This document shows positions 6,291 to 39,858 of a stretch of 64,000 nt of DNA, piece by piece. The position numbers and the translations under genes were made by a program. The stretch is from an uncultured Chloroflexia bacterium (lineage in GTDB: Bacteria; Chloroflexota; Limnocylindria; Limnocylindrales; CSP1-4): NCBI GenBank assembly GCA_963755995.1, contig CAVWLQ010000003.1:981580-1045579 (forward strand). Direction: 5' to 3'. The notes beneath the pieces were generated by a model. It was not told the DNA's origin. It saw only the letters and a list, made by a program, of their open reading frames with translations, and searched no databases. Every line of letters begins with the position of its first letter. The first letter of the stretch is position 1.

Positions 6291-6305
6291 AAGCGATGGG
6301 GAAAG

Positions 6306-9038: not shown

Positions 9039-9235
9039 GCGTCAGGGTATCGCGAGCGCTATCGAGCTGCTCCGCCGATGGGCCCGGGCCGATCTGTCGC
9101 AAGAACGCCGCAGAGCGTCCGAACGTCGTCAGTCTCGGTGCTTGGGGTCGTGATTTCGTGCGACCCTACACTCTCATTGAGGCGTCCGTGACCCGCAGTT
9201 TGCCGCAGCGGCCGCCTCATCCCCAGGAGCTACCA

Positions 9236-12980: not shown

Positions 12981-13054
12981 CGCGCCACCCCACTGCGCTC
13001 GATCCCGACACTCTGCGGCCGTCCGGCCGCCCAATCCATCGACAAGGAGACGAA

Positions 13055-13936: not shown

Positions 13937-14356
13937 TTGGTCATGAACAAGGCAACGATCACCAGACTGTTCATCGGCGGCGGACTTGCCATCGTCACGG
14001 GAGCCATCGTCGCCGTCATCGCCATCGGGATCGCGATGGCCAACGGCATCTTCGTCGTGAACGGCCCCGATGTCGTAGGAGTCAAGGAAAGCGTGCTCGC
14101 GTTCTCCCTTCTCGGTCTCGCCATCGTCGGTACTGTCGCGATCCTGGCCGGTCTGATCGCGGGTCTTGTGGCGTGGCTCGGAGCGCTGATGAATACCTGG
14201 CAGTTGGACAGCAAGGCCTGGTTCGTCGCTCTTCTGCTGTTTGGGATCTTCAACTTCGGGTTCTTCGCGATGATCGCGTTCCTCGCCGCCGGACCGGATG
14301 GCAAGACCGACGCGGAACTTCGGGGAGCGCAGGCCTCCCGAGCGACACCGGCATGA
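13937..14356 (+). CDS. small membrane protein, unknown function
   Basis: 139 aa with 4 predicted hydrophobic helices. GAGGAG lies upstream. Its stop overlaps the SDR start (ATGA at 14353-14356). Confidence 0.6.
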   Translation: MVMNKATITRLFIGGGLAIVTGAIVAVIAIGIAMANGIFVVNGPDVVGVKESVLAFSLLGLAIVGTVAILAGLIAGLVAWLGALMNTWQLDSKAWFVALLLFGIFNFGFFAMIAFLAAGPDGKTDAELRGAQASRATPA

Positions 14357-17721: not shown

Positions 17722-17732
17722 GGAAGCCCACC

Positions 17733-18092
17733 CTACACCCCGGCTGATGTCCTGGGGTCGGGCAAGTCGAATGCGGGCTCGATGCTTTGGAACGGGGCGA
17801 GGGACGCTTCGTTCACGGCTCGGACGAGCGCGAGGCTGACGCTTGCGAACCGCGAGAGCAATCGCCCTTGTCCGGGAATGAACGTTGAGCTCAGGTATGT
17901 GACCCGATCGCCGCGACGCTCGAACCGGTCGACGGCCTCGCACAGGGCCGCCTGGAGCATCACCAGCCCGCGCTCGGTGATCGCCGGCAGGCGACGCTCC
18001 ACGAGGAAAAGGCGCAGCTGGTCAGTCGACGGCTCATCGCAGGAGACCGGCGGCCGGCTCGGATGCCGGTCGCTCGGCGGTTTTGTTTCCAT
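17733..18092 (-). CDS. DUF4242 family protein, co-oriented with and directly upstream of the LuxR regulator
   Basis: ...[76 protein letters not shown]... fits DUF4242. I prefer ATG 18092 over 18134 because it gives the same 57-nt spacing to the GTAC inverted repeat as at 11815. Confidence 0.65.
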
Positions 18093-21742: not shown

Positions 21743-23071
21743 GTGCTCAAGCTCGGTGCCATCATCGCCGCCGGCGGCGTGGCTGCACCGTTGCTCGCCG
21801 CGTGTGGTGCGTCGCGTGGAACCGCCTCGGCGCCCACCGGGACCGTGTCCGGGCCGATCACCGTCCTGGTCGGAGGCAGCGATCCGAGCACAGAGCCTGC
21901 ACTGAAGCGCGTCTATGACGACTTCAAGACCGAGAACCCCGGGATCGTCTGGGACATCCGCGCGATCTCCGGCTTCGGTGCTGAACTGGATCGCCTCTCG
22001 CGCGCCGCATTGGAGTCCGGCGAGCCGGTGGGGCTCGTGACGATCGACGGACTGTTCGTTCGAGCCTGGACGCGCGATGGCCTGCTGGCGGACCTCGGCG
22101 CGGACCCCGGGATGGCCTCGGTGCTTGGCCGCGTGCCTCCGTCGTTCCACCTGGGCGGTCCCGGAGAGACCACGACCAGGGCGTTTCCACTCGCCCTGAG
22201 CCGGGGCGTCCAGACCACGGGCCTGTACTACAACAAGGCGCTCCTGGACCGGGCCGGTCTCGAGCCACCGAAGACGATCGCGGACCTCAAGGCGATGGTC
22301 GCGCCCTTGGCGTCGCTCGGCGCAGCACCTCTGGTCCACTGCTCCGGTGACGTCTCCTTCAACACCCTGCTCATCACCTGGCTGCTGCCGATGATCGCGG
22401 AGCGAACGGGCGACCCGCTGGCATTCGTCGAGAGCACGATCCGAGGCGACATCGGGTACGACAACCCTGAGTGGACCGAAGCCTTCCAGATCATCGCCGA
22501 CCTCCGGACGTCCGGCGTCCTGCTCGCGGGGTCCGGGGCGACCGACTACGCGACGATGCAACTGCTCTTCCTGCAGGGAAAGGCCGCCATGACCTACAAC
22601 GGCACGTGGCTTCTCGCGCCTCTCCAGAAGGGCACGCCGACGGTCCCCTTCGACATTCACGTAGCTCCCCTACCCCTCGTTCATGAGGGGGCGACGGCCC
22701 GCTCCATCCTTGCCTGGGGTGGCCTCGCGATGCCCGCCAAGACCGCCGCGAGCCATGACAGCGTGGTTGCCTTCCTTGAATACGCGAGTCGGCCCGAGGT
22801 GGACAAGGCCATCGTCGAGGGCCTGCAGGTCTATTCACCCATCGCGGCATCGAACAGCGGGATCCACGACCCCGTCGCGCGGGAGTTCCTGCCGATGTTC
22901 GAGGACGCCATCACGCCACTCAACTGGCTGTGGGAGCCGGAGATCGAAGCCGAGATGGACGACCAGATCCAGGCTCTCGTGAAAGGCGATACCGACCCCG
23001 CGTCGGTCGGGAAGGCCATCGAGGCCGTCGCCCAGGACCTGCGGACGTCAGGACGCGGTTACTACAGTTGA
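21743..23071 (+). CDS. ABC transporter extracellular solute-binding protein, family 1 (sugar), lipoprotein
   Basis: 442 aa. The signal peptide ends in the lipobox LLAAC. It is divergent from the two permease genes. In-frame codons just upstream read GRRD before VLKLGA, a Tat-like RRxxLK motif, but no start codon is available there. Confidence 0.8.
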   Translation: MLKLGAIIAAGGVAAPLLAACGASRGTASAPTGTVSGPITVLVGGSDPSTEPALKRVYDDFKTENPGIVWDIRAISGFGAELDRLSRAALESGEPVGLVTIDGLFVRAWTRDGLLADLGADPGMASVLGRVPPSFHLGGPGETTTRAFPLALSRGVQTTGLYYNKALLDRAGLEPPKTIADLKAMVAPLASLGAAPLVHCSGDVSFNTLLITWLLPMIAERTGDPLAFVESTIRGDIGYDNPEWTEAFQIIADLRTSGVLLAGSGATDYATMQLLFLQGKAAMTYNGTWLLAPLQKGTPTVPFDIHVAPLPLVHEGATARSILAWGGLAMPAKTAASHDSVVAFLEYASRPEVDKAIVEGLQVYSPIAASNSGIHDPVAREFLPMFEDAITPLNWLWEPEIEAEMDDQIQALVKGDTDPASVGKAIEAVAQDLRTSGRGYYS

Positions 23072-25821
23072 CCGAGAGCCATATCCGCCCGCTGCTCGAG
23101 ACCAAGCTCTACGTCCCCACGCTGCGACGCGGTCTGGTGACACGTCCGAGACTGAGTGAGCGGCTGAACCGCGGTGGCGAGTCGAAGCTGACCCTGGTCT
23201 CCGCGCCCGCCGGCTTCGGCAAGACCACCCTGCTGGCCGAGTGGCTGGCATCCACTCCGGTCGAGAAGCAGACGGCGTGGCTCTCGCTCGACCCAAGCGA
23301 CAACGAGGCCGCACCCTTCTGGCCCTATGTGATCGCTGCGTTGCAGACGGCGGCGCCTGGGATCGGCGCAACTGCTCTCTCCCTCCTGCAGGGCCCCCAG
23401 CCACCGCCGATCGAGACGGTCTTCGCGACGCTGCTCAACGAGCTCAGCGCTCTGCCGAACGACGTCGTGCTGGTGCTCGACGACTACCACGTGATCGACG
23501 CGCACGACATCCAGGACGGGATGGCGTTCCTGCTGGAGCACCTGCCGCCGCGGCTGCACCTCGTGATCACTACCCGCGCCGACCCTGCGCTGCCGCTGGC
23601 TCGCCTGCGGGCGCGTGGCGAACTCGTCGAGATCCGTGCGGCCGACCTGCGCTTCACGCCGGAGGAGGCCGCCGCGTACCTCAACGAGGTGATGGGGCTG
23701 GATCTCGGGGCGAGCGAGGTTGTCGCGTTGGAGGCGCGGACCGAAGGGTGGATCGCCGCCCTCCAGCTGGCAGCGCTCTCGATGCAGGGCCGAGACGACG
23801 TCGCGGGCTTCATCGCGGGATTCGCCGGGGACGACCGCTACATCGTCGACTACCTGGCCGACGAGGTCTTGCACCGTCAACCCGAACATGTCCGCCAGTT
23901 CCTACTGCAGACCTCGATCCTGGGTCGGCTGACTGGCCCGCTCTGCGATGCCGTTACTGGTCATGAGGGCGGCACGGCGATGCTGGAGGCGCTCGATCGC
24001 GGGAACCTCTTCCTCGTCCCGCTTGATGACCGCCGGCGCTGGTATCGCTACCACCAGCTCTTTGCCGACGTGCTGCGCACGCGCCTCTTCGATGAGCAGC
24101 CAGCGTGGGTGCCCGACCTGCACCGTCGTGCCAGCGACTGGTACGAGCACAACAGTGACCGCTCCGAGGCAATCCGGCACGCGCTGGCGGGCGAAGACTT
24201 CGACCGAGCCGCCAGCCTGATTGAGTTGGCGGTGCCGGCGCTCCGGCAGGGTCATCATGAGGTGACGGCGCTCCGGTGGCTTAGGGCGCTACCGGATGAG
24301 GTCATCGGGCCAAGACCGGTCCTGAGCGTCGCCTACGCCTGGGCGCTGTTGTCCATCGGCGAGCTCGAGGACGTCGAGCGCCGTCTGGGAGACGGCGAGC
24401 GCTGGCTCACGGCGCCCCACGGTGTGCCAGATGAAGCCGGAGCCGGGCGGCCGGAGATGGTTGTCGTAGACCGGCGCGAGTTCAGCCTCCTGGCTGCGCT
24501 GATCGCGGTCTACCGAGCCGTGCTTGCCCAGATCCGAGGCGACGTCGCGACGACCGTCCGGCACGCTCGCGAGGCACTGAATCTGGCTCCCGAGGACGAC
24601 GATCTCCTCCGCGGGGCAGCGGAGGCGCTCTTGGGATTGGCCACATGGGCGAGCGGGGACCTCGAGACCGCGCATCGAATCTACGGCGCTGGGATGGCGC
24701 GGGTGCAGCGGTCTGGCAGCCTCTCTGATGCGCTCGGTGGTGCGATCGCCCTGGCGGACATCCGGATCACCCAGGGACGGCTGCGTGACGCGATCCGGAC
24801 GTACGAGCAGGCATTGCAACTGTCGGCGAAGCATGGCGAGCCAGTCCTGCGGGCCACGGCGGACATGTACGTGGGACTGAGCGACCTCGCCCGTGAGCAG
24901 GGCGACCTCCAGGCCGCCACACGGCATCTCCAGGCGAGCAAGGACCTGGGCGAGCACATGGGCTACCCGCAGAACCGCTATCGGCTGCATGTCGTGACGG
25001 CCCGCATCCGGCAGGCTGAAGGGGACCTCGATGGCGCGCTCGATGCAATCCACGAGGCACAGCGCGTGTACATGCCGGACTTCATCCCGGACGTCCGTCC
25101 CTTGCCGGCGCAAGAGGCGCGAATCCTGCTCAGGCAGGGGCGGTTGGCCGAAGCGAATGCGTGGGCTCGGGCGCGAGGCCTGTCGCCTCACGACGACCTG
25201 ACGTATCTGCGCGAGTTCGAGCACGTCACGCTTGCGAGGGTGCTCCTGGCCCAATCCACGCTGGACCCTTCGGACGGGTCTGCCCGTGACGCCCTCGCGC
25301 TACTGGGTCGCCTGCTGCGAGCAGCGGAGGACGGTCAGCGGACGGGCAATGTCATCGAAATCCTTGTCCTGCTGGCGCTTGCCCACCAGGTGCGAGGCGA
25401 CATGCCTGCCGCTCTTGCCGCCCTCGGACGTGCCCTGGCGCTCGGCGAACCGGAAGGCTATGTTCGCGTCTTCCTCGATGAGGGCCCACCCATGGCGGCC
25501 CTGCTGCAGGACGCCGCGAACCGGGGAATCGCCCCGGACTACGTTCGCCGCCTTCTGACGGCCGCTGTCCGCCCCGAGGACAACGCCGGGAACAAGGAGG
25601 CGCTCATCGAGCCGCTGAGCGACCGTGAGCTTGACGTGCTGCGGCTGCTTGCAACGGATCTGGCCGGACCGGAGATCGCCCGTGAGCTCGTGGTGTCGCT
25701 GAGCACGGTGCGGAGCCACACCAAGGCCATCTACGCAAAGCTCGGCGTGAACAACCGCCGGTCCGCCGTGACCCAGGCCGAGGAACTCGACCTCCTCTCG
25801 CGAGCCCGCGACCGACCGTAG
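23068..25821 (+). CDS. MalT-like LAL / STAND-LuxR transcriptional regulator, copy b
   Basis: The TTG start at 23068 overlaps the SBP stop (TTGA) and gives (M)TESHIRPLLETKLYVPTL..., collinear with the N-termini of copies a and c. It has a P-loop ([13 protein letters not shown]) and a C-terminal HTH ([24 protein letters not shown]). Length 917 aa. Confidence 0.88.
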   Translation: MTESHIRPLLETKLYVPTLRRGLVTRPRLSERLNRGGESKLTLVSAPAGFGKTTLLAEWLASTPVEKQTAWLSLDPSDNEAAPFWPYVIAALQTAAPGIGATALSLLQGPQPPPIETVFATLLNELSALPNDVVLVLDDYHVIDAHDIQDGMAFLLEHLPPRLHLVITTRADPALPLARLRARGELVEIRAADLRFTPEEAAAYLNEVMGLDLGASEVVALEARTEGWIAALQLAALSMQGRDDVAGFIAGFAGDDRYIVDYLADEVLHRQPEHVRQFLLQTSILGRLTGPLCDAVTGHEGGTAMLEALDRGNLFLVPLDDRRRWYRYHQLFADVLRTRLFDEQPAWVPDLHRRASDWYEHNSDRSEAIRHALAGEDFDRAASLIELAVPALRQGHHEVTALRWLRALPDEVIGPRPVLSVAYAWALLSIGELEDVERRLGDGERWLTAPHGVPDEAGAGRPEMVVVDRREFSLLAALIAVYRAVLAQIRGDVATTVRHAREALNLAPEDDDLLRGAAEALLGLATWASGDLETAHRIYGAGMARVQRSGSLSDALGGAIALADIRITQGRLRDAIRTYEQALQLSAKHGEPVLRATADMYVGLSDLAREQGDLQAATRHLQASKDLGEHMGYPQNRYRLHVVTARIRQAEGDLDGALDAIHEAQRVYMPDFIPDVRPLPAQEARILLRQGRLAEANAWARARGLSPHDDLTYLREFEHVTLARVLLAQSTLDPSDGSARDALALLGRLLRAAEDGQRTGNVIEILVLLALAHQVRGDMPAALAALGRALALGEPEGYVRVFLDEGPPMAALLQDAANRGIAPDYVRRLLTAAVRPEDNAGNKEALIEPLSDRELDVLRLLATDLAGPEIARELVVSLSTVRSHTKAIYAKLGVNNRRSAVTQAEELDLLSRARDRP

Positions 25822-25891
25822 CCCAGGCGCGAAGCCCCGGTCGGCCGCCGCAAGTCGCCTCGCGGCTCGATCGAAGATTCATCACCTCGAA

Positions 25892-25920
25892 TCCCCACAT
25901 GTGGGGATGCTCGCTCCCCA
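25892..25920 (+). promoter_or_regulatory. tripartite operator-like repeat TCCCCA-N4-TGGGGA-N7-TCCCCA upstream of small gene b
   Basis: Half-sites at 25892-25897, 25902-25907 and 25915-25920. The first two form the perfect 18-bp palindrome ATCCCCACATGTGGGGAT. The repeat lies 63 bp upstream of ATG 25984. Confidence 0.55.
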
Positions 25921-25983
25921 CGTCCGCTCCGATGCTCGGGACCACGCCGGCAGACAGATCGCAGGACCGGCGGAAGGGAGCAG

Positions 25984-26259
25984 ATGAGCGGAACGACACG
26001 CATCGACGGTGACCGTCACGAGGACGGCCGCTACGAGATTCGCCTCAAGGGACACCTGGATGGCCGATGGGCTGCCTGGTTTGACGGCCTGAGCCTCAGC
26101 CACGAGAGCGACGGCGTCACCGTCATCCGTGGCGGCGTACCCGATCAGGCGGCGCTCCATGGCCTGCTCCAGAAGGTGCGCGACACCGGACTACCACTGC
26201 TCTCGGTGACGCACGTCGACGCCGATCCGACCGGGACGCCAGGCGCCGAGCCTCGATAG
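25984..26259 (+). CDS. conserved small protein of unknown function (RYEIRL...DQAALHGLLQK-R family), copy b
   Basis: 91 aa, with GGAAGGGAG upstream. Core: RYEIRLKGHLDGRWAAWFDGLSLSHESDGVTVIRGGVPDQAALHGLLQKVRDTGLPLLSV. Confidence 0.8.
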   Translation: MSGTTRIDGDRHEDGRYEIRLKGHLDGRWAAWFDGLSLSHESDGVTVIRGGVPDQAALHGLLQKVRDTGLPLLSVTHVDADPTGTPGAEPR

Positions 26260-26290
26260 CCCAATACGAACGAACGAAAGGGAAACCGAC

Positions 26291-27100
26291 ATGACAACCG
26301 CCGATCGAACCGCGGCAACGAAACGACCGCCGATGGACTCGATGCGGAAGACCGCGCTCGTCGCGGGCATCCTCTACCTGATCACCTTCATTTCGGTCGC
26401 GACACTGACCCTCTACGGCCCCGTGTTGAAAGATCCGGCCTACATCCTGAGCTCCGGAAGCGACGCCGGCCTGCGTTGGGGCGCCCTCATCGACGTGATC
26501 GTCGCGCTCGCCGGCATCGGCGCCGCCATCACGCTGTACCCGGTCGTCAGGCGCCAGAACGAGGCCGTCGCCCTTGGGTTCGTTACCTCCCGCGTCATCG
26601 AGGGCGCGATGCTCCTCACGGGTGTCGTGAGCCTTCTCTCGCTCGCGTCGCTGCACCAGGTGGGCGCCGCGGCCGGCGCCGACTCGACCGCGCTTCTCAC
26701 CAGTGGCGCCTCGTTCGTCGGGACGTACAACGCGGCGTTCCTGATCGGCGGGACCCTCATGCCCGCGGTGAATGCCCTTCTGCTCGGGTACCTGATGTAC
26801 CGATCCAGCCTCGTGCCGCGACTCATTCCCGCGATCGGACTCGTCGGCGGCGTCTTGATGACGTCTTCCGCGATCGGACAGATCCTCGGCATCAACGAGA
26901 AGATCTCGGTGTGGTCCCTCATCGCACTCCTGCCGATCTTTCTCTGGGAGCTGTCACTCGGCATGTGGATGACCTTCAAGGGGTTCCGCAAGGAAGCGCC
27001 GCTGATGGTCGAGGCCGCGGCCGAGGCGGAGAGCCCGCACGGATCGGCACCGGCAGTCCTGTCACCGATCCCCGTCGCGACGACGGCGGGTGCAGCGTGA
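26291..27100 (+). CDS. DUF4386 membrane protein, copy b
   Basis: 269 aa, intact. RKTALVAGILYLITFISV...ALLPIFLWELSLGMWMTFKGFRKEAP. Confidence 0.85.
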   Translation: MTTADRTAATKRPPMDSMRKTALVAGILYLITFISVATLTLYGPVLKDPAYILSSGSDAGLRWGALIDVIVALAGIGAAITLYPVVRRQNEAVALGFVTSRVIEGAMLLTGVVSLLSLASLHQVGAAAGADSTALLTSGASFVGTYNAAFLIGGTLMPAVNALLLGYLMYRSSLVPRLIPAIGLVGGVLMTSSAIGQILGINEKISVWSLIALLPIFLWELSLGMWMTFKGFRKEAPLMVEAAAEAESPHGSAPAVLSPIPVATTAGAA

Positions 27101-27564
27101 CCGCCACCGAGGCGCGGCCGACTCGTGTCCCGCCGCGAGTGGTCATCCGTGTTGTCTGGCTGCTGCACCGCGCACTCCTTCGGTTCAGCGGGGGACGGGT
27201 CGGGCTGCGGGCTCCGGGCGACAAGTTCGGGCTGCTGCGCCTGACGACGGTTGGGCGCCGCTCGGGTCAGCCACGAGTCGCGATCGTTGGGTACTACGAG
27301 GACGGCCCGAACCTGGTCACGTTGGCGATGAACGGCTGGGCCGAGGCCGACCCCGCGTGGTGGCTGAACCTGCAGGCGCACCCGGACACCGTCGCCGCGT
27401 TGGATGACGGCGTGCGTTACGTCCGTGGTCGCGCGGCGGAAGGCGCGGAGCGCGATCGGCTCTGGGCTCGGTGGGTCGAGTTCAGCGACCAGTACGACGC
27501 TTGGGCCGCGCTGCGCTCCGGGAGGACCGCGGTGGTCGTGCTCGAGCCTCGCGCCGCCGCGTGA
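27097..27564 (+). CDS. deazaflavin (F420)-dependent nitroreductase family protein (TIGR00026), copy b
   Basis: The GTG at 27097 overlaps the DUF4386 stop (GTGA). 155 aa: ...GRRSGQPRVAIVGYYEDGPNLVTLAMNGWAEADPAWWLNLQAHPDT...ERDRLWARW... Confidence 0.85.
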   Translation: MTATEARPTRVPPRVVIRVVWLLHRALLRFSGGRVGLRAPGDKFGLLRLTTVGRRSGQPRVAIVGYYEDGPNLVTLAMNGWAEADPAWWLNLQAHPDTVAALDDGVRYVRGRAAEGAERDRLWARWVEFSDQYDAWAALRSGRTAVVVLEPRAAA

Positions 27565-27567
27565 CGA

Positions 27568-27602
27568 GCGAGAGTCCCGGACGCAGCCTCCGGGACTCTC
27601 GC
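27568..27602 (+). terminator. strong hairpin separating cassette b from cassette c
   Basis: GCGAGAGTCCCGG-ACGCAGCCT-CCGGGACTCTCGC is a perfect 13-bp stem beginning 4 nt after the stop codon. No clear U tract follows. Confidence 0.55.
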
Positions 27603-27690
27603 CACGCAACGTGGATGCGGGGCCCATCCGCGGCGGCTCTTCGACGCCATGATGCGCCGTCGCGATCGGGCCCTTGAGGTACCGTGAGGC

Positions 27691-30441
27691 GTGACCAGTT
27701 CACTGCTCGAAACCAAGTTCTACCCCCCGAGGCAGCGCAGTGGCCTGGTGCCCCGGCCACGCTTGACAGAGCGCCTCGATCGCGGCGTCCAGTCCAAGTT
27801 GACGCTCGTCTCAGCACCAGCTGGCTTCGGGAAGTCCACGCTCGTGGCCGAATGGCTTGCGGCGACACCCGCCGAAGGACCGCTCGCCGCGTGGCTATCG
27901 CTCGACGCGAGCGACAACCATCCGATGGCGTTCTGGACTCACGCGATCGTGGCCCTGCAGAAGGTGGAGCCAGCGGTCGGCGCCAGTTCGCTGTCCCTGC
28001 TCGAAGCATCCGGCCCATCGATCGAGACCGTCCTTGCGCCGCTCCTCAACGACCTCGACCTTGTAGCGAAGGACATCGTTCTGGTGCTCGACGACTACCA
28101 CACGATCGAGGCACCGGAGATCCAGGTCGGCATCACGTTCATGCTCGAGCACCTTCCGGCCAATGTGCATCTGGTGATCACCACCCGCGCCGATCCGGTC
28201 CTGCCGCTGGCGCGAATGCGGGCGCAGGGGGAACTGGTCGAGGTCCGTGCCGCGGACCTGCGCTTCACGCCGGACGAGGCCACGGCCTACCTCAACGACG
28301 TGATGACGCTGGGGCTGACTGCTGGAGATGTCGCCACGCTGGAAGGTCGGACCGAAGGCTGGATCGCGGCTCTCCAGCTCGCGGGACTCTCGATGCAGGG
28401 GCGAAACGATCACGCCGCCTTCATCGCCGGATTTGCCGGCGATGACCGCTACATCGTCGACTACCTGGTCGAGGAGGTCTGGCAGCGTCAACCGGACCAC
28501 CTCCGCGACTTCCTGTTGCAGACCTCGATCCTGGCCCGCATGACCGGCCCACTCTGCGATGCCGTCACCGGCCAGGCTGGCGGCAAGGCGACCCTGGAAG
28601 CGCTGGATCGACGGAACCTGTTCCTGATCCCGCTCGACGACCGGCGACGGTGGTATCGCTACCACCACCTGTTCGGCGACGTCCTGCAGACGCGTCTGCT
28701 CGACGAGCAGCCCGAAGTCCTCGCGGAGCTGCATCGGCGGGCAACCGAGTGGTACACGCAGGAAGGGGAACCCGACGAGGCGATCCGCCACGCGATCGCG
28801 GGCGGCGACTTCGAACGTGGGGCGGACTTGGTCGAGTTGGCGATCCCCGCGATGGGCCGTGACCGTCGGGAGGCGACCTTACGTCGGTGGCTCGAGGCGC
28901 TCCCGGAAGAGTCGATCCGCGTCCGCCCCGTGCTGAGTGACGGCTATGCCGGTGCGTTGCTCGTCCGCGGCGAGATCGACGGGGTGGAGGCACGCTTGGC
29001 GGACGCCGAGCGGTGGCTCAAGCTGACGGCCGAGTCGCTTGCCGGCGAGGGATCCCGGCCGGTCGCGATGGTGGTCGCGGACGAAGCGGCGTTCCGCAGT
29101 CTGCCGACGTCGATCGCCATCCACCGAGCCGGGTTGGCCCGGAAGATCGGGGACGACACCGCGACGGTGACCCACGCGCGCCGCGCCCTCGAGCTCGTCG
29201 GCGAGCACGATCATCTCGGGCGCGGTGGCGGCGCCGCGCTCCTGGGCCTCGCTTACTGGGCCGTCGGCGACTTGGACGCGGCGCAGCGGTCCTACGCCGA
29301 TGCCATTTCCAGCCTGGAGAAGGCGGGGCACCGATCGGACGAGATCGGCCTGGCCCTCGGCCTGGCCGACATGCAGATCGCGCAAGGCCGTCTCCACGAT
29401 GCGCTGCGGACCTACGAACGAGGACTGGAGCTTGCAACAGGTGAGGGCGGCGACGTCCTCCGTGGAGCGGCTGATATGCACGTAGGCATCAGCGAGATCC
29501 TCCGTCAGCGCGATGACCTCGTCGGCGCGGCGCGTCACCTGCAGTCGGCCTCGGAGCTCGGTGAGGAGAATGGCCTGCCGCAGAACCCGTACCGGTCGCG
29601 CGTGGCCGCCGCTCGGATCAGGCTGGCGGTGGGAGACGTCGAGGCGGCCCTCCAACTCCTGGGGGAGGCGGACCGCCTGTACGCGAATGACTTCTCGCCC
29701 GATGTGCGCCCGGTCAGTGCCCTTCGGGCACGGGTCTGGATCACGCAAGGACGGCTCCCCGAGGCCCTGAGCTGGGCACGCGAGTCTGGCCTTTCAGCCG
29801 CGGATGAGCTCGACTATGTCCGCGAGTTCGAGCACATCACCTTGGCCAGGCTGCTGCTCGCCCAGGGAGTGCGCGACCGACCCGGCACCGGCCGCGGAGA
29901 CGCGATCGATCTCCTCGAGCGGCTCCTCGCGGCAGCCGAGGACGGCGGGCGAACGGGCAGCGTGATCGAGGTCCTGGTCGTCCAGGCTCTCGCTCGGTGG
30001 GCGCTCGACGACGCGCCGGGTGCGCTCGGGTCGCTCGAGCGCGCGGTGAAGCTCGCGGAGCCGGAAGGCTACGTCCGCGTCATCGCCGACGAGGGCCCGA
30101 CGATGGCAGCGCTGCTGCGTTCGGTGACACAGCGGCGGGACGCGTCCGACTACCTGCGCACACTCCTGGCCGCCACCGTCACCCCGGCTGCGCCGGCGCC
30201 GGCCGATCGGTCACTGGTCGAGCCGCTCAGTGAACGTGAACTCGAGGTCCTCCGCTTGCTCGGCGGCGACCTCGACGGCCCTGACATCGCGCGGGAACTC
30301 ACGGTGTCGTTGCCCACCGTCCGGACGCACACCAGCAACATCTACTCGAAGCTGGGCGTCACGAGTCGCCGCGCCGCGGTCCGTCGCGCCAGCGAGCTCG
30401 GTCTCCTCCAGAGCGGCGACGGGCGACGCACCACCGGCTGA
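27691..30441 (+). CDS. MalT-like LAL / STAND-LuxR transcriptional regulator, copy c
   Basis: 916 aa, GTG start with GAGG upstream. MTSSLLETKFYPPRQ..., P-loop VSAPAGFGKSTLV, C-terminal HTH LPTVRTHTSNIYSKLGVTSRRAAV. I estimate roughly two-thirds identity to copy b by eye. Confidence 0.9.
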   Translation: MTSSLLETKFYPPRQRSGLVPRPRLTERLDRGVQSKLTLVSAPAGFGKSTLVAEWLAATPAEGPLAAWLSLDASDNHPMAFWTHAIVALQKVEPAVGASSLSLLEASGPSIETVLAPLLNDLDLVAKDIVLVLDDYHTIEAPEIQVGITFMLEHLPANVHLVITTRADPVLPLARMRAQGELVEVRAADLRFTPDEATAYLNDVMTLGLTAGDVATLEGRTEGWIAALQLAGLSMQGRNDHAAFIAGFAGDDRYIVDYLVEEVWQRQPDHLRDFLLQTSILARMTGPLCDAVTGQAGGKATLEALDRRNLFLIPLDDRRRWYRYHHLFGDVLQTRLLDEQPEVLAELHRRATEWYTQEGEPDEAIRHAIAGGDFERGADLVELAIPAMGRDRREATLRRWLEALPEESIRVRPVLSDGYAGALLVRGEIDGVEARLADAERWLKLTAESLAGEGSRPVAMVVADEAAFRSLPTSIAIHRAGLARKIGDDTATVTHARRALELVGEHDHLGRGGGAALLGLAYWAVGDLDAAQRSYADAISSLEKAGHRSDEIGLALGLADMQIAQGRLHDALRTYERGLELATGEGGDVLRGAADMHVGISEILRQRDDLVGAARHLQSASELGEENGLPQNPYRSRVAAARIRLAVGDVEAALQLLGEADRLYANDFSPDVRPVSALRARVWITQGRLPEALSWARESGLSAADELDYVREFEHITLARLLLAQGVRDRPGTGRGDAIDLLERLLAAAEDGGRTGSVIEVLVVQALARWALDDAPGALGSLERAVKLAEPEGYVRVIADEGPTMAALLRSVTQRRDASDYLRTLLAATVTPAAPAPADRSLVEPLSERELEVLRLLGGDLDGPDIARELTVSLPTVRTHTSNIYSKLGVTSRRAAVRRASELGLLQSGDGRRTTG

Positions 30442-30504
30442 CGCGCGTCCTCTCAGGCGTGCCCGCGTAGCGACTCGGTCGCTCCTGAAAATCATCACGC
30501 CACT

Positions 30505-30532
30505 CATCACGTGTGCTGATGCGCGCTCATCA
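30505..30532 (+). promoter_or_regulatory. tripartite repeat CATCA-N7-TGATG-N6-CATCA (part of three TCATCAC repeats) upstream of small gene c
   Basis: TCATCAC occurs at 30492, 30504 and 30527. An inverted TGATG lies at 30517-30521. The outer direct repeats are 23 bp apart start-to-start, the same as in copies a and b, but the half-site sequence differs. Confidence 0.4.
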
Positions 30533-30614
30533 CATTCGCCTCCACGGTGTGTCCAGTGACTCAGGCCGGTACTGCCGGCCCGAGATCCAGATGGCAACAC
30601 GCACGAGGAGCGGA

Positions 30615-30890
30615 ATGACCGAACCACACACCTTGACACCCCGTCCCCCCGAAGCCGGGCGCTACGAGATCCGGCTCGCGGGGCACCTCGACGCGCGCTG
30701 GACCGCCTGGTTCGACGGACTGACCGTCGCCTACGAGAGCGACGGGACCACCGTCATCAGCGGTCAGGTCGCAGACCAGGCAGCGCTCCATGGCCTGCTC
30801 CAGCGCGTGCGGGACCTTGGCCTACCCCTGGTATCGGTCGAGCGGGTCGACATCGACCAGCCCGACCTGCCCACCAACCTCCTTCGATAG
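30615..30890 (+). CDS. conserved small protein of unknown function (RYEIRL...DQAALHGLLQ-R family), copy c
   Basis: I prefer ATG 30615, which has GAGGAG 5 nt upstream and gives 91 aa, the same as copy b. Core: RYEIRLAGHLDARWTAWFDGLTVAYESDGTTVISGQVADQAALHGLLQRVRDLGLPLVSV. Confidence 0.78.
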   Translation: MTEPHTLTPRPPEAGRYEIRLAGHLDARWTAWFDGLTVAYESDGTTVISGQVADQAALHGLLQRVRDLGLPLVSVERVDIDQPDLPTNLLR

Positions 30891-30908
30891 TCCCGAAAGG
30901 ACACAGAC

Positions 30909-31707
30909 ATGACTACCAACATCGCGAACCGACTCTCGATGAGCTCGATGCGCAAGATCGCGCTCGTCGCGGGCGTCCTGTACCTGCTCACGTTCATCAG
31001 CTCGATCCCGGCCGTCTTCCTGCAGAGCCCGGTCCTGAACGATCCCAACTTCATCATCGGCAGCGCCGGCGCCGACACCCAGGTCCGCCTCGGCGCCCTC
31101 TTCGACATCGTCAATAGCCTCACCGCGATCGGGACCGCGATCGCGCTCTATGCGGTCATCAAGCGCCAGAGCCAGAGCTTCGGCATCGGCTTCGTCTGCT
31201 CGCGGCTGTTCGAAGGCACCGTCCTCATGATCGGCGTCATCAGCATCCTGTCGATCGTGACCCTGCAGCAGCCTGGCGCGACCGGAGCCGAGGCCTCACT
31301 GCTGGTCACCGTGCAGCACACGCTCGTGACCGTCCGCAATTGGACTTTCGTGCTCGGGACCGGCGTCCCTGCCCTCAACGCCTTCCTGCTGGGCTGGATC
31401 ATGTACAAGTCGCGCCTCGTCCCGCGTGCGATCCCGGTGATCGGACTCATCGGAGCGCCGCTGTTCACCTCCTGGATCATCGGCTACGTCCTCGGCGTCA
31501 CCGAGCCCGGTACCGCATGGCACGGGATCGGCGGTCGCTCCGATCTTCATCTGGGAGCTGTCCCTCGGCCTGTGGATGACCTTCAAGGGGTTCCGCAAGG
31601 AGGCTCCGCTCATGATCGAGGCCGCCGCCGAAGATGCCAGCCTGGCTGACTCCGCCAGCGTCACCCGCTCGTCGATCGGCGTCGCAGCCAACGCGGGTGC
31701 CGCGTGA
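30909..31707 (+). CDS. DUF4386 membrane protein, copy c, +1 frameshift near 31533
   Basis: ORF 30909..31649 loses the family C-terminus after ...TAWHGIG. Removing one G (GG 31533-31534) restores ...VAPIFIWELSLGLWMTFKGFRKEAPLMIEAAAE... ending at TGA 31705-31707. Length is 799 nt, which is 1 mod 3. Confidence 0.78.
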
Positions 31708-32207
31708 CGGCTATCCGCGAGGGGGCGCCGCGGACACCGCCGCGCCCCCTGATCCGCATCTTCTGGACGCTGCACCGCGCGGCGTACCGGGTCAGCGGGG
31801 GAGGCTTCGGCCTCTCCCGACCGGTCGCCGGCAGCAAGTTCGGGATGCTGCGTCTCGCGACCGTCGGACGTCGGTCCGGCCAGTCGCGGGTCGCGATCAT
31901 CGGCTACTTCGAGGACGGCCCCAACCTCGTCACCCTGGCCATGAACGGTTGGGGCGAGAAGGAGCCGGCCTGGTGGCTGAACCTCCAGGCGCTGCCCGAG
32001 ACGACCGTCGAACTCCCCGGCGAGGCGCGAGCTGTTCGAGCCCGCGCCGCAGCTGGCGAGGAACGCGATCGGCTGTGGGCGACGTTCAGCGACTACCCCG
32101 GCTGGGGTGACGACATCGACGGTCTCGCCCGGCGTCGGTCGTCGGAGACAGCGGTCGTCGTCTTCGAGCCTCGGGCGGCAGCTGGCAAGATCGGAGTCGC
32201 GTCATGA
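31704..32207 (+). CDS. deazaflavin (F420)-dependent nitroreductase family protein (TIGR00026), copy c
   Basis: The GTG at 31704 overlaps the restored DUF4386 stop (GTGA). ...GRRSGQSRVAIIGYFEDGPNLVTLAMNGWGEKEPAWWLNLQALPETTVEL...ERDRLWATF... Confidence 0.85.
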   Translation: MTAIREGAPRTPPRPLIRIFWTLHRAAYRVSGGGFGLSRPVAGSKFGMLRLATVGRRSGQSRVAIIGYFEDGPNLVTLAMNGWGEKEPAWWLNLQALPETTVELPGEARAVRARAAAGEERDRLWATFSDYPGWGDDIDGLARRRSSETAVVVFEPRAAAGKIGVAS

Positions 32208-32608
32208 CAGCCATCGCTTTCCGTCCGGGGCGCCTGGCGCCACGGCACCTCTGGCTGATCCCGGGGATCGCCCTCGGGCTCTACGCCAATGTCGTCGCCG
32301 GGCAGCATGCGCTCGGTTTGGTGCCGGTATTGATCTTCGGGATCGTCCCGCACCTTTCGGTCTTCGTTGGGACCGGCCAGTCGCACGCCCCGGGCCAGCT
32401 CGCACCCCGCGCCGTCCCGCTCTTCAATGCGATGCACCACCCCGCCATGCCGCTGGCGCTGCTCGTGGTCGCCGCGGTTGGCATCCTCCCGCCGTTCTGG
32501 TTCGTCGGCGCACTCGCGTGGCTCGGGCACATCGTGGCCGACCAGGGCATGGGCAATGGGCTGCGGACGAAGGATGGCTGGCGCCGTCCGCCGTGGCTGG
32601 CGCGATGA
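32204..32608 (+). CDS. small membrane protein, distantly DUF4260-like
   Basis: 134 aa with 4 hydrophobic segments. The pattern ...FGIVPHLSVFVG...LFNAMHHPAMPLALL...LAWLGHIVADQGMGNGLRTKDGW parallels the DUF4260 gene at 19220. Its ATG overlaps the previous stop. Confidence 0.55.
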   Translation: MTAIAFRPGRLAPRHLWLIPGIALGLYANVVAGQHALGLVPVLIFGIVPHLSVFVGTGQSHAPGQLAPRAVPLFNAMHHPAMPLALLVVAAVGILPPFWFVGALAWLGHIVADQGMGNGLRTKDGWRRPPWLAR

Positions 32609-32885: not shown

Positions 32886-32916
32886 AACGAAGACCCGCTG
32901 GTCACCCAGCGGGTCT
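32880..32916 (-). terminator. island-borne hairpin terminator immediately downstream of the intact tRNA-Cys
   Basis: AGACCCGCTGG-TCAC-CCAGCGGGTCT is a perfect 11-bp stem. On the minus strand it is followed by TCGTTTGG. It lies 17 nt after the tRNA 3' end. Confidence 0.6.
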
Positions 32917-32930
32917 GTTCGTGTTCGGAA

Positions 32931-32978
32931 AGTGGAGGCGACGACCGGATTCGAACCGGTGAATAGAGGTTTTGCAGA
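32931..32978 (-). repeat. att-like 48-bp core within the intact tRNA-Cys (proximal direct repeat)
   Basis: Identical to 3675..3722. It covers the anticodon loop through CCA plus 2 downstream nt. Confidence 0.9.
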
Positions 32979-33009
32979 CCTCCGTGTTGAGCCACTTCAC
33001 CACGTCGCC
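32933..33009 (-). tRNA. tRNA-Cys (anticodon GCA), CCA encoded
   Basis: Acceptor GGCGACG/CGTCGCC, anticodon arm GAGGT-CTGCAAA-ACCTC, T arm CCGG-TTCGAAT-CCGG, discriminator T, CCA. Confidence 0.93.
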
Positions 33010-33044
33010 AGATGTGCCTGCAGACAGGCGCCGGTCGCAGTTGC

Positions 33045-33118
33045 TGGCTGCCCCTCGAGGATTCGAACCTCGGTTCACGGATCCAAAGTCCGCTGTCCTA
33101 CCGCTAGACGAAGGGGCA
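33045..33118 (-). tRNA. tRNA-Gln (anticodon TTG), CCA encoded
   Basis: Acceptor TGCCCCT/AGGGGCA with U1:A72 and discriminator G, as is typical for Gln. Anticodon arm GCGGA-CTTTGGA-TCCGT. Confidence 0.88.
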
Positions 33119-33139
33119 GCGACCCGAGAACGGAGGAAT

Positions 33140-33215
33140 TGGAGCGGAAGACGGGACTCGAACCCGCGACCCTCACCTTGGCAAGGTGATGCTCTACCAA
33201 CTGAGCCACTTCCGC
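33140..33215 (-). tRNA. tRNA-Gly (anticodon GCC), CCA encoded
   Basis: GCGGAAGTGGCTCAGTTGGTAGAGCATCACCTTGCCAAGGTGAGGGTCGCGGGTTCGAGTCCCGTCTTCCGCTCCA. Confidence 0.93.
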
Positions 33216-33237
33216 CTGAGATCCGCCCACCCGTAGG

Positions 33238-33313
33238 TGGTGCCGAGAGCCAGATTCGAACTGGCGACACCGCGATTTTCAGTCGCGTGCTCTACCAACT
33301 GAGCTATCTCGGC
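33238..33313 (-). tRNA. tRNA-Phe (anticodon GAA), CCA encoded
   Basis: GCCGAGATAGCTCAGTTGGTAGAGCACGCGACTGAAAATCGCGGTGTCGCCAGTTCGAATCTGGCTCTCGGCACCA. Confidence 0.93.
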
Positions 33314-33405: not shown

Positions 33406-34386
33406 CTAGTCGAGGCCGGTCAGCGCGGCTGCGTCGGACCCTTCGAGCGGCGCCTCGCCGGTCAGCTCCCGGAGCCGGTTGATCCGGTCGAGGATCGGCG
33501 GGTGGGTGTCCATCAGCCCGGAGGACCGTGCCTCGAACTTCTTGATCGGATTGGTGAAGTACATGTGCTGCGTGCCGCGGTTGGCGACTTCCAGCACCTC
33601 CTGGTCGCCGCCGATCTTGGCCAGCGCCCGTTCAAGCCCATAGGGGTTTCGGGTCAGCTCGACCGACGAGGCATCGGCCAGGTACTCGCGCTGGCGGCTG
33701 ACGGCCAGCTGGATGAACCGGCTGATGATGGGCGCGAGGATCGCCAGGACGATCGCGACGACGAGGATCACGGCCTGGATCCCGTTGCCGCCGCTGTCGC
33801 GGCTCGACCGCCGGCTGGACATGCCGCCCCAGAACGTGAAGCGCAGGAAGAAGTCGGCCAGGATCGCGATCGCGCCGACCATCACCCCGACGATGAGCGA
33901 GAACCGGATGTCGAAGTTGCGCACGTGCGAGAGCTCGTGGCCGATGACCCCCTGGAGCTCCTCTCGATCGAGCTTCTGGAGGAGGCCGGTCGTGATCGCG
34001 ATCGACGCGTGCGCCGGATCACGGCCCGTGGCGAAGGCGTTCGGCGCGGTGTCGTCGATGATGTAGACGGCGGGCATCGGCACGTTGGCCGCCACGGCCA
34101 GCTCGCGGACGACGTTGAGGAGCTGGGGCGCAGCGGCCTCGTCGACCGGCTGCGCGCCGCTCACGGTCAGGACGAGCTTGTCACCGCTGAAGTAGCTGGC
34201 CACGCCGGTGATCGAGCCGATGCCCAGGGCCAGCGCCATCGCACCGACGCCACCGGCCGGTGTCCCGACGATGGCGTAGCCGATCGTGAAGCCGAGCACG
34301 GCGAACAGCGCGACGACGAACGCCGCGAGGACGAACGAGTTCCGCTTGTTCGCCGAGATCTGCCCGTAGAACGATCCAGTGGCCAC
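33406..34386 (-). CDS. htpX: M48-family zinc metalloprotease HtpX
   Basis: 326 aa. It has N-terminal TM helices and the HEXXH motif (VIGHELSHVRNFD). It lies next to lemA, a common pairing. Confidence 0.9.
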   Translation of the reverse strand: MATGSFYGQISANKRNSFVLAAFVVALFAVLGFTIGYAIVGTPAGGVGAMALALGIGSITGVASYFSGDKLVLTVSGAQPVDEAAAPQLLNVVRELAVAANVPMPAVYIIDDTAPNAFATGRDPAHASIAITTGLLQKLDREELQGVIGHELSHVRNFDIRFSLIVGVMVGAIAILADFFLRFTFWGGMSSRRSSRDSGGNGIQAVILVVAIVLAILAPIISRFIQLAVSRQREYLADASSVELTRNPYGLERALAKIGGDQEVLEVANRGTQHMYFTNPIKKFEARSSGLMDTHPPILDRINRLRELTGEAPLEGSDAAALTGLD

Positions 34387-34408
34387 GGCCAGGTCCCGCG
34401 GCTGCCCG

Positions 34409-34979
34409 TCAGCTCAGGCTGAGGTCGACGTTCGGGACGTTGGCAGCCTCGGGCTCAGCGTCGAAGAAGTCGCGCTTGATGAACCCGAGGATGCCCGCGA
34501 TGAGCACGGCCGGGAACGTCTGGATGTTGGTGTTGTAGTCGAGGACCGTCGCGTTGTAGTGCTGGCGCGAGAACGAGATCTGGTTCTCGGTCGTGGTCAG
34601 CTGCTCCTGGAGGGCCAGCACGTTCTCGTTGGCCTTCAGCTCGGGATAGTTCTCGACGACCGCGAAGAGCGACCGCAGGGTGCCGGTCAGGGCGTTCTCC
34701 GCGGCGGCCTGCTGGGCGGGGCCCTGCGACGCCGGCGGCGACCGCGGCGGCCCGGGCATTGGTCACGTCGGTCAGGACCTTCTGCTCGAACCCCATGTAG
34801 CCCTTCACGGCGTTGACCAGGTTCGGGATGAGGTCGTGGCGGCGCTTCAGCTGGACTTCGATCTGGGCGAACGCCTCGTCGATCCGCAACCGCTTCTGGA
34901 CCAGGCCGTTGTAGATCCCGATGAGGACGATGACCAGGACGATGGCGATCACGATGACGATGATCAGGATCGGACTCAT
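34409..34979 (-). CDS. lemA: LemA family membrane protein, +1 frameshift near 34718-34721
   Basis: The N-terminus (MSPILIIVIV...YNGLVQKRLRIDEAFAQIEVQLKRRHDLIPNLVNAVKGYMGFEQKVLTDVTNARAAA) is in ORF 34455..34979. The rest (...ENALTGTLRSLFAVVENYPELKANENVLALQEQL...) is in ORF 34409..34759. The extra base lies in a GGGG run. Length is 571 nt, which is 1 mod 3. Confidence 0.85.
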
Positions 34980-35067: not shown

Positions 35068-35144
35068 TGGTGGGCGGTACAGGGTTCGAACCTGTGACTT
35101 CCTCGGTGTAAGCGAGGCGCTCTGACCAGCTGAGCTAACCGCCC
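35068..35144 (-). tRNA. tRNA-Val (anticodon TAC), CCA encoded
   Basis: GGGCGGTTAGCTCAGCTGGTCAGAGCGCCTCGCTTACACCGAGGAAGTCACAGGTTCGAACCCTGTACCGCCCACCA. Confidence 0.93.
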
Positions 35145-35195
35145 GGGAAAGCATAACGACCGCCGCGCCGGCGACGGTCGTCAGGGATGATGTCG

Positions 35196-35280
35196 TGGTG
35201 CCCAGGCCGGGACTTGAACCCGGATGAGTTGCCTCATACGCCCCTCAAACGTACGCGTATACCAATTCCGCCACCTGGGC
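35196..35280 (-). tRNA. tRNA-Leu (anticodon GAG), long variable arm, CCA encoded
   Basis: Acceptor GCCCAGG/CCTGGGC, anticodon arm TACGT-TTGAGGG-GCGTA, variable arm TGAGGCAACTCAT, T arm CCGGG-TTCAAGT-CCCGG. Confidence 0.88.
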
Positions 35281-35319
35281 TAGAGGTGCCTGCCACGATC
35301 GACGATCCACAACGAGGGG

Positions 35320-35406
35320 TGGTACCGAGGAAGGGATTTGAACCCATACGCCCTTGCGGACACTAGCTCCTGAAGCTAGCGCGTCTACCAGTTCCGCCAC
35401 CTCGGC
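35320..35406 (-). tRNA. tRNA-Leu (anticodon CAG), long variable arm, CCA encoded
   Basis: GCCGAGGTGGCGGAACTGGTAGACGCGCTAGCTTCAGGAGCTAGTGTCCGCAAGGGCGTATGGGTTCAAATCCCTTCCTCGGTACCA. Anticodon loop is TTCAGGA. There is a G1:U72 wobble. Confidence 0.88.

Positions 35407-37488: not shown

Positions 37489-39858
<2,370 letters not shown>

Follow-up and report, generated by a model that had tools for sequence, protein, structure and literature searches.

In Firmicutes, the quinone and electrophile regulons of MhqR, YodB, and CatR in Bacillus subtilis control VOC-type dioxygenases, nitroreductases, and azoreductases through small MarR/DUF24 repressors that sense by thiol chemistry. In Mycobacterium tuberculosis, DoxX-SseA-SodA is a membrane-associated oxidoreductase complex, in which a small polytopic membrane protein scaffolds soluble redox enzymes. 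With F420H2, enzymes of the FDOR-A group reduce menaquinone as well as many other quinones and xenobiotics (PMC8498797). The activator MalT undergoes inducer- and ATP-driven multimerization and binds its boxes cooperatively (PMC4381067); these boxes, GGGGA(T/G)GAGG, overlap the -35 element, and the MalT of Actinoplanes activates a region of poorly annotated genes (PMC7567727). Here we describe a 64-kb stretch of DNA from an uncultured Chloroflexia bacterium (contig CAVWLQ010000003.1; hereafter the window, to which all positions refer), in which three collinear gene cassettes, a, b, and c, each combine a MalT-type regulator (LAL), a small protein, a DUF4386 membrane protein, and a Ddn-like deazaflavin-dependent reductase (FDOR-A). 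The original prediction knew of no described system combining these families. In agreement with this, we found no paper on the module or mentioning DUF4386 (PF14329), although coverage of the literature search was incomplete and the module may still be described. Regulators and reductases of these kinds are known; the uncharacterized parts are the family of the small protein, DUF4386, and the constant linkage of both to the LAL.

The regulatory architecture that we propose, and regard as highly probable, is that each cassette would be a self-contained regulon under a MalT-type (LAL/STAND) activator. The LAL gene would stand apart from the operon that it controls, with a strong hairpin parting cassette b from LAL-c. 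The LuxR HTH domain would bind four MalT-box-like sites of 6-7 bp ahead of the small gene: a direct pair, an inverted site that completes a palindrome, and one that covers the -35 element. By analogy with MalT, an inducer at the TPR sensor together with ATP would lead to multimerization and to transcription of the small gene and DUF4386, in some cassettes continuing into FDOR-A and then DUF4260. The predicted products are a cytoplasmic ferredoxin/ACT-like protein of 90 amino acids, a membrane protein with six transmembrane (TM) helices, and, here, a Ddn-like reductase that would be translationally coupled to the membrane protein. The features of the three cassettes, taken from a listing of open reading frames (ORFs) with their translations, are as follows (nt, nucleotides).

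3850-9038, minus strand: cassette a (ORFs and translation)
3850-4329, minus strand: FDOR-A-a; TIGR00026 above cut-off
4326-5126, minus strand: DUF4386-a (phmmer and translation)
5178-5864, minus strand: memX, an extra membrane protein of 228 amino acids between the small gene and DUF4386; no family
5861-6184, minus strand: small protein a, 107 amino acids; ATG behind GGAAGGAG (translation)
6261-6302, minus strand: operator/promoter a; TCCCCA boxes, three direct and one inverted, beginning 5 nt past the LAL-a stop
6306-9038, minus strand: LAL-a (translation)
23068-27564, plus strand: cassette b (ORFs and translation)
23068-25821, plus strand: LAL-b, MalT-type STAND activator with P-loop NOD, MalT-like TPR sensor, and LuxR HTH; TTG start; Pfam TPR_MalT (E 2e-74), GerE, and AAA_16
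25879-25922, plus strand: operator/promoter b (sequence and box coordinates), one of three box clusters in the window
25984-26259, plus strand: small protein b, 91 amino acids, 'RYEIRL...DQAALHGLL'; no Pfam or NCBIfam match
26291-27100, plus strand: DUF4386-b, membrane protein with six TM helices; PF14329, E 1e-42, full length
27097-27564, plus strand: FDOR-A-b, Ddn-like deazaflavin-dependent reductase; PF04075, E 7e-19; TIGR00026 above cut-off
27568-27602, plus strand: hairpin separating cassettes b and c; 14-bp stem, -40.7 kcal/mol, z = -6.2
27691-32608, plus strand: cassette c (ORFs and translation)
27691-30441, plus strand: LAL-c, with HTH 'VSLPTVRTHTSNIY'; Pfam TPR_MalT (E 1e-67) and GerE
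30492-30534, plus strand: operator/promoter c, CATCAC boxes arranged as in b; the sole CATCAC cluster in the window (sequence)
30615-30890, plus strand: small protein c, 91 amino acids; ATG at 30615 behind GAGGAG
30909-31707, plus strand: DUF4386-c, disrupted by a 1-nt insertion near 31531; the ORF as read ends at 31649
31704-32207, plus strand: FDOR-A-c; PF04075, E 8e-17; TIGR00026
32204-32608, plus strand: DUF4260-like small membrane protein; PF14079, 27.0 bits

All genes of the cassettes lay where the original prediction had placed them, with b and c collinear in the same orientation and the third copy inverted at 3850-9038, and the named families were confirmed with Pfam and NCBIfam, the DUF4260 match lying exactly at its cut-off. 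Gene order is kept among the copies as it had stated, with the difference that cassette a holds the extra gene memX. Four-nucleotide overlaps link many of the neighbors: GTGA joins DUF4386-b to FDOR-b, and ATGA joins DUF4386-a to FDOR-a, FDOR-c to DUF4260, and memX to the small gene of cassette a (junction checks). The overlap of DUF4386 with the reductase, claimed for both b and c, was thus present as such in b, whereas in c the GTGA overlap and the last TM helix of DUF4386 exist only in the +1 frame of a three-frame translation. Alignment with the orthologue of locus L038 indicated one additional base near 31531, and owing to this frameshift the Pfam match of DUF4386-c covers only profile positions 1-171 of 210. 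For small protein c, the longer ORF starts at 30513 and 30591 were judged less likely than the ATG at 30615 on the basis of the Shine-Dalgarno sequence and translation. The hairpin at 27568-27602 proved real, although its stem is 14 bp rather than the reported 13; it has no U-tract, and is likely an intrinsic terminator of that kind.

The three regulators belong to the LAL/MalT-type STAND activators, having the NOD, the TPR sensor, and the LuxR HTH of that group. In translation, all three copies carry the Walker A motif GFGKTT and the Walker B motif LVLDDYH, and the N-terminal NOD matched AAA_16, NACHT, and AAA_22 in Pfam. The TPR sensor PF17874 was matched over the full profile length (E 2e-74 in b and 1e-67 in c), and the C-terminal HTH matched PF00196/GerE at E of about 1e-14. 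LAL-b matched the NCBIfam MalT model (NF003420) at E 2e-128, but the score of 429.6 bits is below the equivalog cut-off of 537, and no mal genes were found in the cassettes or nearby, so that these LALs are not MalT proper.

A common layout precedes each small gene: a box, about 5-7 nt, a box, 4 nt, an inverted box, 6-7 nt, a box, and a -10-like hexamer. In promoter b the order is CATCAC, CCCCAC, ATGT, inverted GGGGAT, 6-7 nt, and CCCCAC beside a weak -10-like hexamer. The boxes are of the (T)CCCCA(C) type in cassettes a and b and of the CATCAC type in cassette c, which has its own HTH as well as its own operator, as the original prediction had noted. It had also pointed to operator-like repeats before the small genes, and clusters of at least three boxes within 60 nt were indeed found solely at the three small-gene promoters of the window, compared with 0-0.3 in shuffled sequence. 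A consensus derived from 82 of 85 small-gene upstream regions (3 from the window and 82 from other loci) reads aaTCaCCAC-N5-TCACCACaTGTGGTGATGCc.gCTCAcCAC-N9-tA.ctT, also written as aaTCaCCAC.tcaaTCACCACaTGTGGTGATGCc.gCTCAcCACaTccgCtcCtA.ctT. The central palindrome was present with at most one mismatch in 65 of the 82 upstream regions of these loci (79%), while it was found in 0.1% of shuffled sequences and in none (0%) of the downstream controls of the same size.

The box covaries with residue X of SL-X-TVR in the LuxR recognition helix, such that N or H pairs with CACCA (45/49), S with CCCCA (12/13), and A or P with CATCA (7/7). This rule also holds on the Acaryochloris marina plasmid, where S occurs with CCCCAC, and LAL-c has orthologues with an identical HTH and box (L057 and others). 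Because the boxes are conserved and their sequence covaries with the HTH residue, there is strong in silico evidence that each LAL acts on the promoter of the neighboring small gene, and the claim that the LALs control the adjacent genes is very probably right. From the MalT analogy and the position of the boxes, we infer that the LAL activates rather than represses. The most upstream box of cassette b (25880-25885) is CATCAC, the type of cassette c, and the other three boxes of b are CCCCAC; the CATCAC box may permit cross-talk from LAL-c or may be a relic. Cassettes a and b, which share CCCCAC boxes, may also show cross-talk. As for the leaders, some Actinomycetota loci (L034, L037, L066, L070) have a -10-like hexamer about 7 nt before the small-gene ATG, suggesting leaderless transcripts, and the Chloroflexota small genes have a leader of 50-90 nt with a Shine-Dalgarno sequence. 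RNA hairpins in the leaders upstream of the small genes of the window were no better than shuffled sequence (z = -0.4, -2.1, and +0.1) and were dropped.

A scan for the small gene in species-representative genomes gave more than 584 loci, of which the 80 best were looked at; these came from Chloroflexota metagenome-assembled genomes (MAGs) and from Actinomycetota, including Kribbella, Geodermatophilus, Blastococcus, and Acrocarpospora. Neighbors were counted for 82 small genes with enough flank. A LAL lay within 4 kb upstream of the small gene in 69 of 73 cases, directly adjacent and on the same strand in 58 of these 73, and DUF4386 lay directly downstream in 58 of 72, but FDOR followed in just 7 of 69. 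The conserved core in Chloroflexota and Actinomycetota is therefore LAL, small gene, and DUF4386, and not the four-gene unit that had been proposed; FDOR is an add-on found almost only in Chloroflexota MAGs. A distant Anaerolineae-type subfamily (GC content 45-60%) keeps the LAL-small order, often in tandem arrays, and 58 of about 72 loci have a DUF4386-like gene on the downstream side. Annotated records extend the LuxR-type regulator and small gene further, with other cargo: on the Chlorohelix allophototropha plasmid, a regulator of about 900 amino acids and the small gene are followed by MMPL; on the Acaryochloris marina plasmid, a regulator of 900 amino acids and the small gene are followed by a pair of DUF6326 genes, and VOC and ADH genes are close by; and in Deinococcus psychrotolerans, the regulator and an unannotated small gene are followed by a hypothetical protein of 475 amino acids. 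Since DUF4386-reductase pairs also occur without a LAL or small gene (L091, L093, L105, L110, L125), two nested units are distinguished: a regulatory unit of LAL, boxes, and small gene, and an effector unit of DUF4386 with or without a coupled reductase.

The small protein defines a family that has no name and comprises, at 50% identity, about 12,000 clusters (11,960 at E ≤ 1e-3). It had no match in Pfam, NCBIfam, or PADLOC, and its homologues, which make up at least 8,000 clusters at 90% identity, are all named hypothetical. In an exact look-up among assemblies, the small protein of the window was absent. The AlphaFold2 model is beta-alpha-beta-beta-alpha-beta (pLDDT 75). A Foldseek search with it gave only generic HMA, ACT, and designed ferredoxin folds (best E 0.02), and a PDB sequence search with the small-protein profile gave chance matches only. 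The protein could be a component of the regulatory circuit, acting as a co-activator, as a feedback anti-activator comparable to MalY, MalK, and Aes on MalT, or as an inducer-binding adaptor of the LAL, with the later genes as the sole effectors. LAL, small gene, and boxes are invariant across phyla while the cargo may be DUF4386, MMPL, DUF6326, ABC, or the 475-residue hypothetical protein; the small gene always comes first after the boxes; the predicted ACT-like fold is typical of small-ligand regulatory domains; and MalT itself is controlled by protein inhibitors that bind its NOD (PMC4381067). On the other hand, some database proteins fuse the small domain with an MDR reductase (P0336), with DUF6326 (P0374), or with TM segments in the order small-TM-small (P0290, P0305), which points to the cargo, and not the LAL, as its partner. 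A tandem duplicate of the domain is also recorded (P0317), and some of these fusion and duplication records may be gene-calling artefacts. We consider a role confined to the regulatory circuit possible, though on balance unlikely.

DUF4386-b matched PF14329 with 147 bits over positions 1-210, and its model is a bundle of six long helices (AlphaFold2, pLDDT 86). Foldseek found no solved structural relative of this model (best E 0.47, TM-score ≤ 0.31). The genes that accompany DUF4386 or take its place vary. A PIG3-like MDR follows it directly at seven loci (L062, with a 4-nt overlap, L052, L076, L080, L069, L022, and L058), and in Geodermatophilaceae, an MDR resembling NAD(P)H quinone-oxidoreductase occupies the place of FDOR after DUF4386. 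A thioredoxin-reductase-like flavoprotein follows the reductase and DUF4260 at L038 and L057. The window holds a comparable pair with an ATGA overlap of 4 nt between its genes (junction check):

12006-12980, plus strand: MDR of the PIG3-like NAD(P)H quinone-oxidoreductase family; Pfam ADH_zinc_N_2/ADH_N; best NCBIfam match quinone_pig3, below cut-off
12977-13831, plus strand: fourth DUF4386 gene, outside the LAL cassettes; Pfam DUF4386, E 4e-27, 96 bits

Because FDOR-A and PIG3-like MDR couple to DUF4386, and the alternative cargo includes VOC proteins, thioredoxin-reductase-like proteins, and exporters, the cassettes might be inducible systems that deal with a lipophilic and redox-active compound, quinone-like or electrophilic, at the membrane, binding or moving it and reducing it by two electrons. 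A redox or detoxification role of this kind is proposed tentatively, and at appreciably less than even confidence. An alternative is an inducible export or transport module. In that case, DUF4386 would move a toxic or signaling compound as a small exporter or permease, the reductases would be dispensable additions, and redox chemistry would not belong to the core. MMPL transporters, sometimes with DUF4389, stand in the place of DUF4386 at L031, L034, L042, L047, and L073, in addition to the Chlorohelix plasmid; an ABC ATPase with permease is the cargo at L060 and L022; an MFS gene on the opposite strand accompanies 20 of the best 80 loci; and DUF4386 has conserved polar or charged residues inside its TM helices (R101, E104, E220). 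However, DUF4386 matches no known transporter fold, and the translational coupling of two unrelated reductase families to it would be unusual for a plain exporter. We therefore rate export as rather doubtful.

Two further membrane proteins are present in only some of the cassettes. MemX had no match in Pfam, NCBIfam, or PADLOC, and the idea that it is a diverged DUF4386 was rejected (hhalign probability against the DUF4386 profile, 0.3%); it occurs in the same place in other Chloroflexota cassettes and LAL-less DUF4386-reductase pairs (L057, L087, L097, L100, L133, L141). The DUF4260 assignment rests on a score of 27.0 bits against PF14079, exactly at the cut-off of 27, and covers only profile positions 53-106. 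This gene travels with c-type cassettes only, following the c-type FDOR in at least 10 loci (L011, L038, L057, L065, L111, L116, L122, L125, L158, L160).

The reductases of the window are assigned to the FDOR-A family by hidden Markov models and by similarity to Ddn, which agrees with their earlier description as Ddn-like. Scores were 68.7 and 62.1 bits against PF04075 (cut-off 22) and 62.7-65.9 bits for copies a, b, and c against TIGR00026 (cut-off 46.35), and the best PDB matches were M. tuberculosis Ddn structures 3R5L, 3R5P, and 3R5R (E 4e-14). The stretches TTxGRRSGQPR and DPAWWLNL align with conserved Ddn motifs and are invariant among the copies; the Ddn literature assigns these residues to the cofactor site. 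By family membership, the window enzymes would use F420, and the F420 dependence, membrane redox activity, and substrates earlier proposed for the cassettes remain putative. A gene with a strong Pfam match to the CofD domain (40655-42061, minus strand, 468 amino acids) was considered as the F420 biosynthesis gene cofD and rejected, as it is YvcK (TIGR01826), located beside WhiA.

Among the 80 nearest homologues of the window FDORs in species-representative genomes, the reductase gene directly follows DUF4386 in about 45, with the exact 4-nt overlap in 25, and the full order LAL-small-DUF4386-FDOR is present in about 35. Outside this genome, too, the module is a real and co-inherited unit, as these orders and the joint travel of the LAL, small, and FDOR subtypes show. 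Nearly all of these homologues are from Chloroflexota MAGs, and a few lie on short contigs with other labels that are probably mis-binned. Near-identical copies of cassette b were seen on 3-6-kb contigs binned as Verrucomicrobiia, Gemmatimonadales, and Proteobacteria (L003, L082, L084), for which faulty binning is a likelier cause than transfer. Where identity is 66% or lower, as in Actinomycetota and Acidimicrobiia, the homologues are mostly solitary genes. Database fusions of DUF4386 to FDOR were not used as evidence: P0124, P0127, P0129, and P0146, considered as Rosetta-stone records, are frameshift read-throughs into an open upstream FDOR frame, and P0123 is the only in-frame deletion fusion.

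The closeness to Ddn also bears on a respiratory role, in which FDOR docked on DUF4386 would pass electrons from F420H2 to the menaquinone pool, as proposed for Ddn, and would be induced by energy or redox conditions instead of serving detoxification. Among solved structures, Ddn and its homologues come nearest; menaquinone is reduced by Ddn, which also stimulates the respiration of membranes (PMC8498797); and the reductase is tightly coupled to a membrane protein. Nevertheless, at least three separately regulated paralogues in one genome and the replacement by MDR, MMPL, or ABC fit a diversity of substrates better, and a respiratory input is considered improbable.

Pairwise identity among copies a, b, and c was 53-60% for LAL, 52-62% for the small protein, 35-47% for DUF4386, which is the most diverged gene, and 63-72% for FDOR. 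LAL-b and LAL-c are 60% identical, below the two-thirds estimated by eye in the original prediction, and LAL-a is 53-56% identical to either; small proteins b and c share 62%, and DUF4386-a and DUF4386-b share 41%. Within the LAL, the TPR sensor is the most diverged structured domain (48-53%), compared with 53-67% for the NOD and 68-77% for the HTH. The subtypes travel together, reductase b with LAL-b and small protein b, c with c, and a with a, and a-type LAL orthologues were found at L067, L095, L103, and L104; a, b, and c are therefore old paralogue lineages with orthologues in other genomes and not the result of a local duplication. Duplication followed by sub-specialization is accordingly kept for a long timescale only, and the closest relatives showed no b-c tandem. 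Given the multiple paralogues, the orthogonal boxes, and the diverged sensors, every copy would respond to an inducer of its own, with a separate box/HTH pair as insulation.

Small membrane proteins and tandem arrays of diversified paralogues are also typical of defense islands, STAND NTPases are common defense sensors, and the left 33 kb of the window is island-like, which could suggest anti-phage STAND defense with a membrane-disrupting effector. The cargo, however, consists of reductases and transporters, the LuxR HTH with its covarying cognate operators implies a transcriptional output, and PADLOC gave only weak matches in the LAL HTH region and none for the small protein, DUF4386, FDOR, DUF4260, or memX. 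Defense is therefore a very improbable explanation.

Taken together, the best explanation remains a LAL-driven cassette for the inducible handling of a lipophilic, redox-active compound, and our confidence in this reading as a whole is evenly balanced; its inferred parts are the inducer, the kind of substrate, and what the small protein and DUF4386 do. Several observations weigh against it. Its support is in silico throughout, consisting of gene order, coupling, conservation, boxes, and covariation. Most loci have an operon of just the small gene and DUF4386, with no enzyme, so that the case for a redox role of the core comes from accessory genes; DUF4386 shows no signature of catalysis or transport, and no F420 biosynthesis gene was found in the 64-kb window. 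The small gene keeps its first place after the boxes whatever the cargo, which would suit a regulatory role no less than that of an effector. The cases behind the box-HTH covariation are not independent in phylogenetic terms, yet the S-CCCCAC pairing recurs in distant lineages. A sigma-70 consensus scan found no promoter at the box regions, and the -10-like hexamers of the window are weak; this null result is expected because the promoters would be activator-dependent and high in GC (66-74% across the window), and it is not positive evidence. Finally, DUF4386-c may be a pseudogene, which would count against the reading, or may carry an assembly indel. Several housekeeping genes to the right of the cassettes, in the second half of the window, seem split or fused as well (37489-39603, 46299-47636, 48127-50060; a TIM fragment is fused to iPGM), RecJ is N-terminally short and starts inside its DHH domain, and SecD and SecF cover only model positions 189-397 and 99-279, respectively. 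These breaks suggest indel errors in the assembly, and the frameshift in DUF4386-c may be one of them.

A broader extension can be drawn from the same data. LAL, small gene, and four-box promoter might form a modular sensor-output device across Chloroflexota, Actinomycetota, Cyanobacteriota, and Deinococcota, in which the small protein would be a new, obligatory partner of the STAND factors or of the membrane cargo, DUF4386 would represent a novel class of membrane protein and dock non-homologous quinone reductases (F420-dependent FDOR-A, NAD(P)H-dependent MDR), and a code of one residue to one base (N/H, S, and A/P for CACCAC, CCCCAC, and CATCAC) would let many orthogonal copies coexist in a genome. 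We regard this extension in its entirety as speculative and rather unlikely.

In the surroundings of the cassettes, two STAND-LuxR regulators of other subfamilies lie between cassettes a and b (9158-11548, plus strand; 15382-17943, minus strand), flanking the MDR-DUF4386 pair (12006-13831) and an SDR oxidoreductase gene (14173-15243), and the window holds five LuxR-type STAND regulators in 30 kb. An Rfam scan of the whole window found tRNAs only. One further feature was recorded beside a tRNA cluster:

32891-32916, plus strand: terminator-like hairpin with a T-rich tail, 3' of cassette c (consensus scan only)

Third-codon-position GC of the genes is about 0.8 left of 33 kb and about 0.93 right of it, where the genes are of housekeeping type (uvrABC, whiA, yvcK, secDF, tatC, recJ, pyrF). 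The boundary coincides with two tRNA clusters, 32933-33313 (Cys, Gln, Gly, Phe) and 35068-35406 (Val, Leu, Leu), with an M48 peptidase and LemA gene pair between them (33406-34759, minus strand); a further tRNA-Leu is located at 297-383. It is possible that the left 33 kb with the cassettes is an island, or else a chimera of the assembly.

These results may be of use in several respects. A small protein with no Pfam or NCBIfam model that is almost always wired to a MalT-type activator would mark a large unannotated class of regulons in soil Chloroflexota and Actinomycetota. For DUF4386, its coupling to two unrelated quinone-reductase families offers the first testable hypothesis of function. 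The box-HTH covariation is a checkable DNA-recognition rule for LALs, and could provide orthogonal inducible promoters for high-GC hosts. The cassettes would also offer an example, from outside Actinomycetota, of a Ddn-like enzyme that answers to its own ligand-sensing activator and is linked to a partner in the membrane.

Compared with the known systems, the LALs of the window resemble MalT of Escherichia coli in their size of about 900 amino acids, P-loop NOD, TPR/SUPR sensor, and C-terminal LuxR HTH, and in short boxes that are repeated in direct and inverted orientation with one predicted over the -35 element; the inverted GGGGATG of cassette b resembles the MalT box. In contrast to MalT, they fall below the equivalog cut-off, have no mal genes nearby, and show a fixed layout of four boxes with an invariant small gene as the first target. 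The reductases share with Ddn and FDOR-A1 the PF04075/TIGR00026 family, the GR(R/K)(S/T)GQPR loop, the (N/D)PxW(W/Y)LNL motif, and a hydrophobic and basic N-terminal segment. However, they are only about one third identical to Ddn, the 'SKGG' stretch of Ddn aligns with MNGW, and the enzymes are translationally coupled to DUF4386 and would be under LAL control. The quinone regulons of Firmicutes have similar cargo to that found around the LAL-small pair (FDOR-A, PIG3-like MDR, VOC, and thioredoxin-reductase-like flavoproteins), but their small repressors are replaced here by a STAND activator of 900 amino acids and two uncharacterized core proteins. With DoxX-SseA-SodA, the cassettes would share the concept of a membrane scaffold only; no sequence or fold relation was detected.

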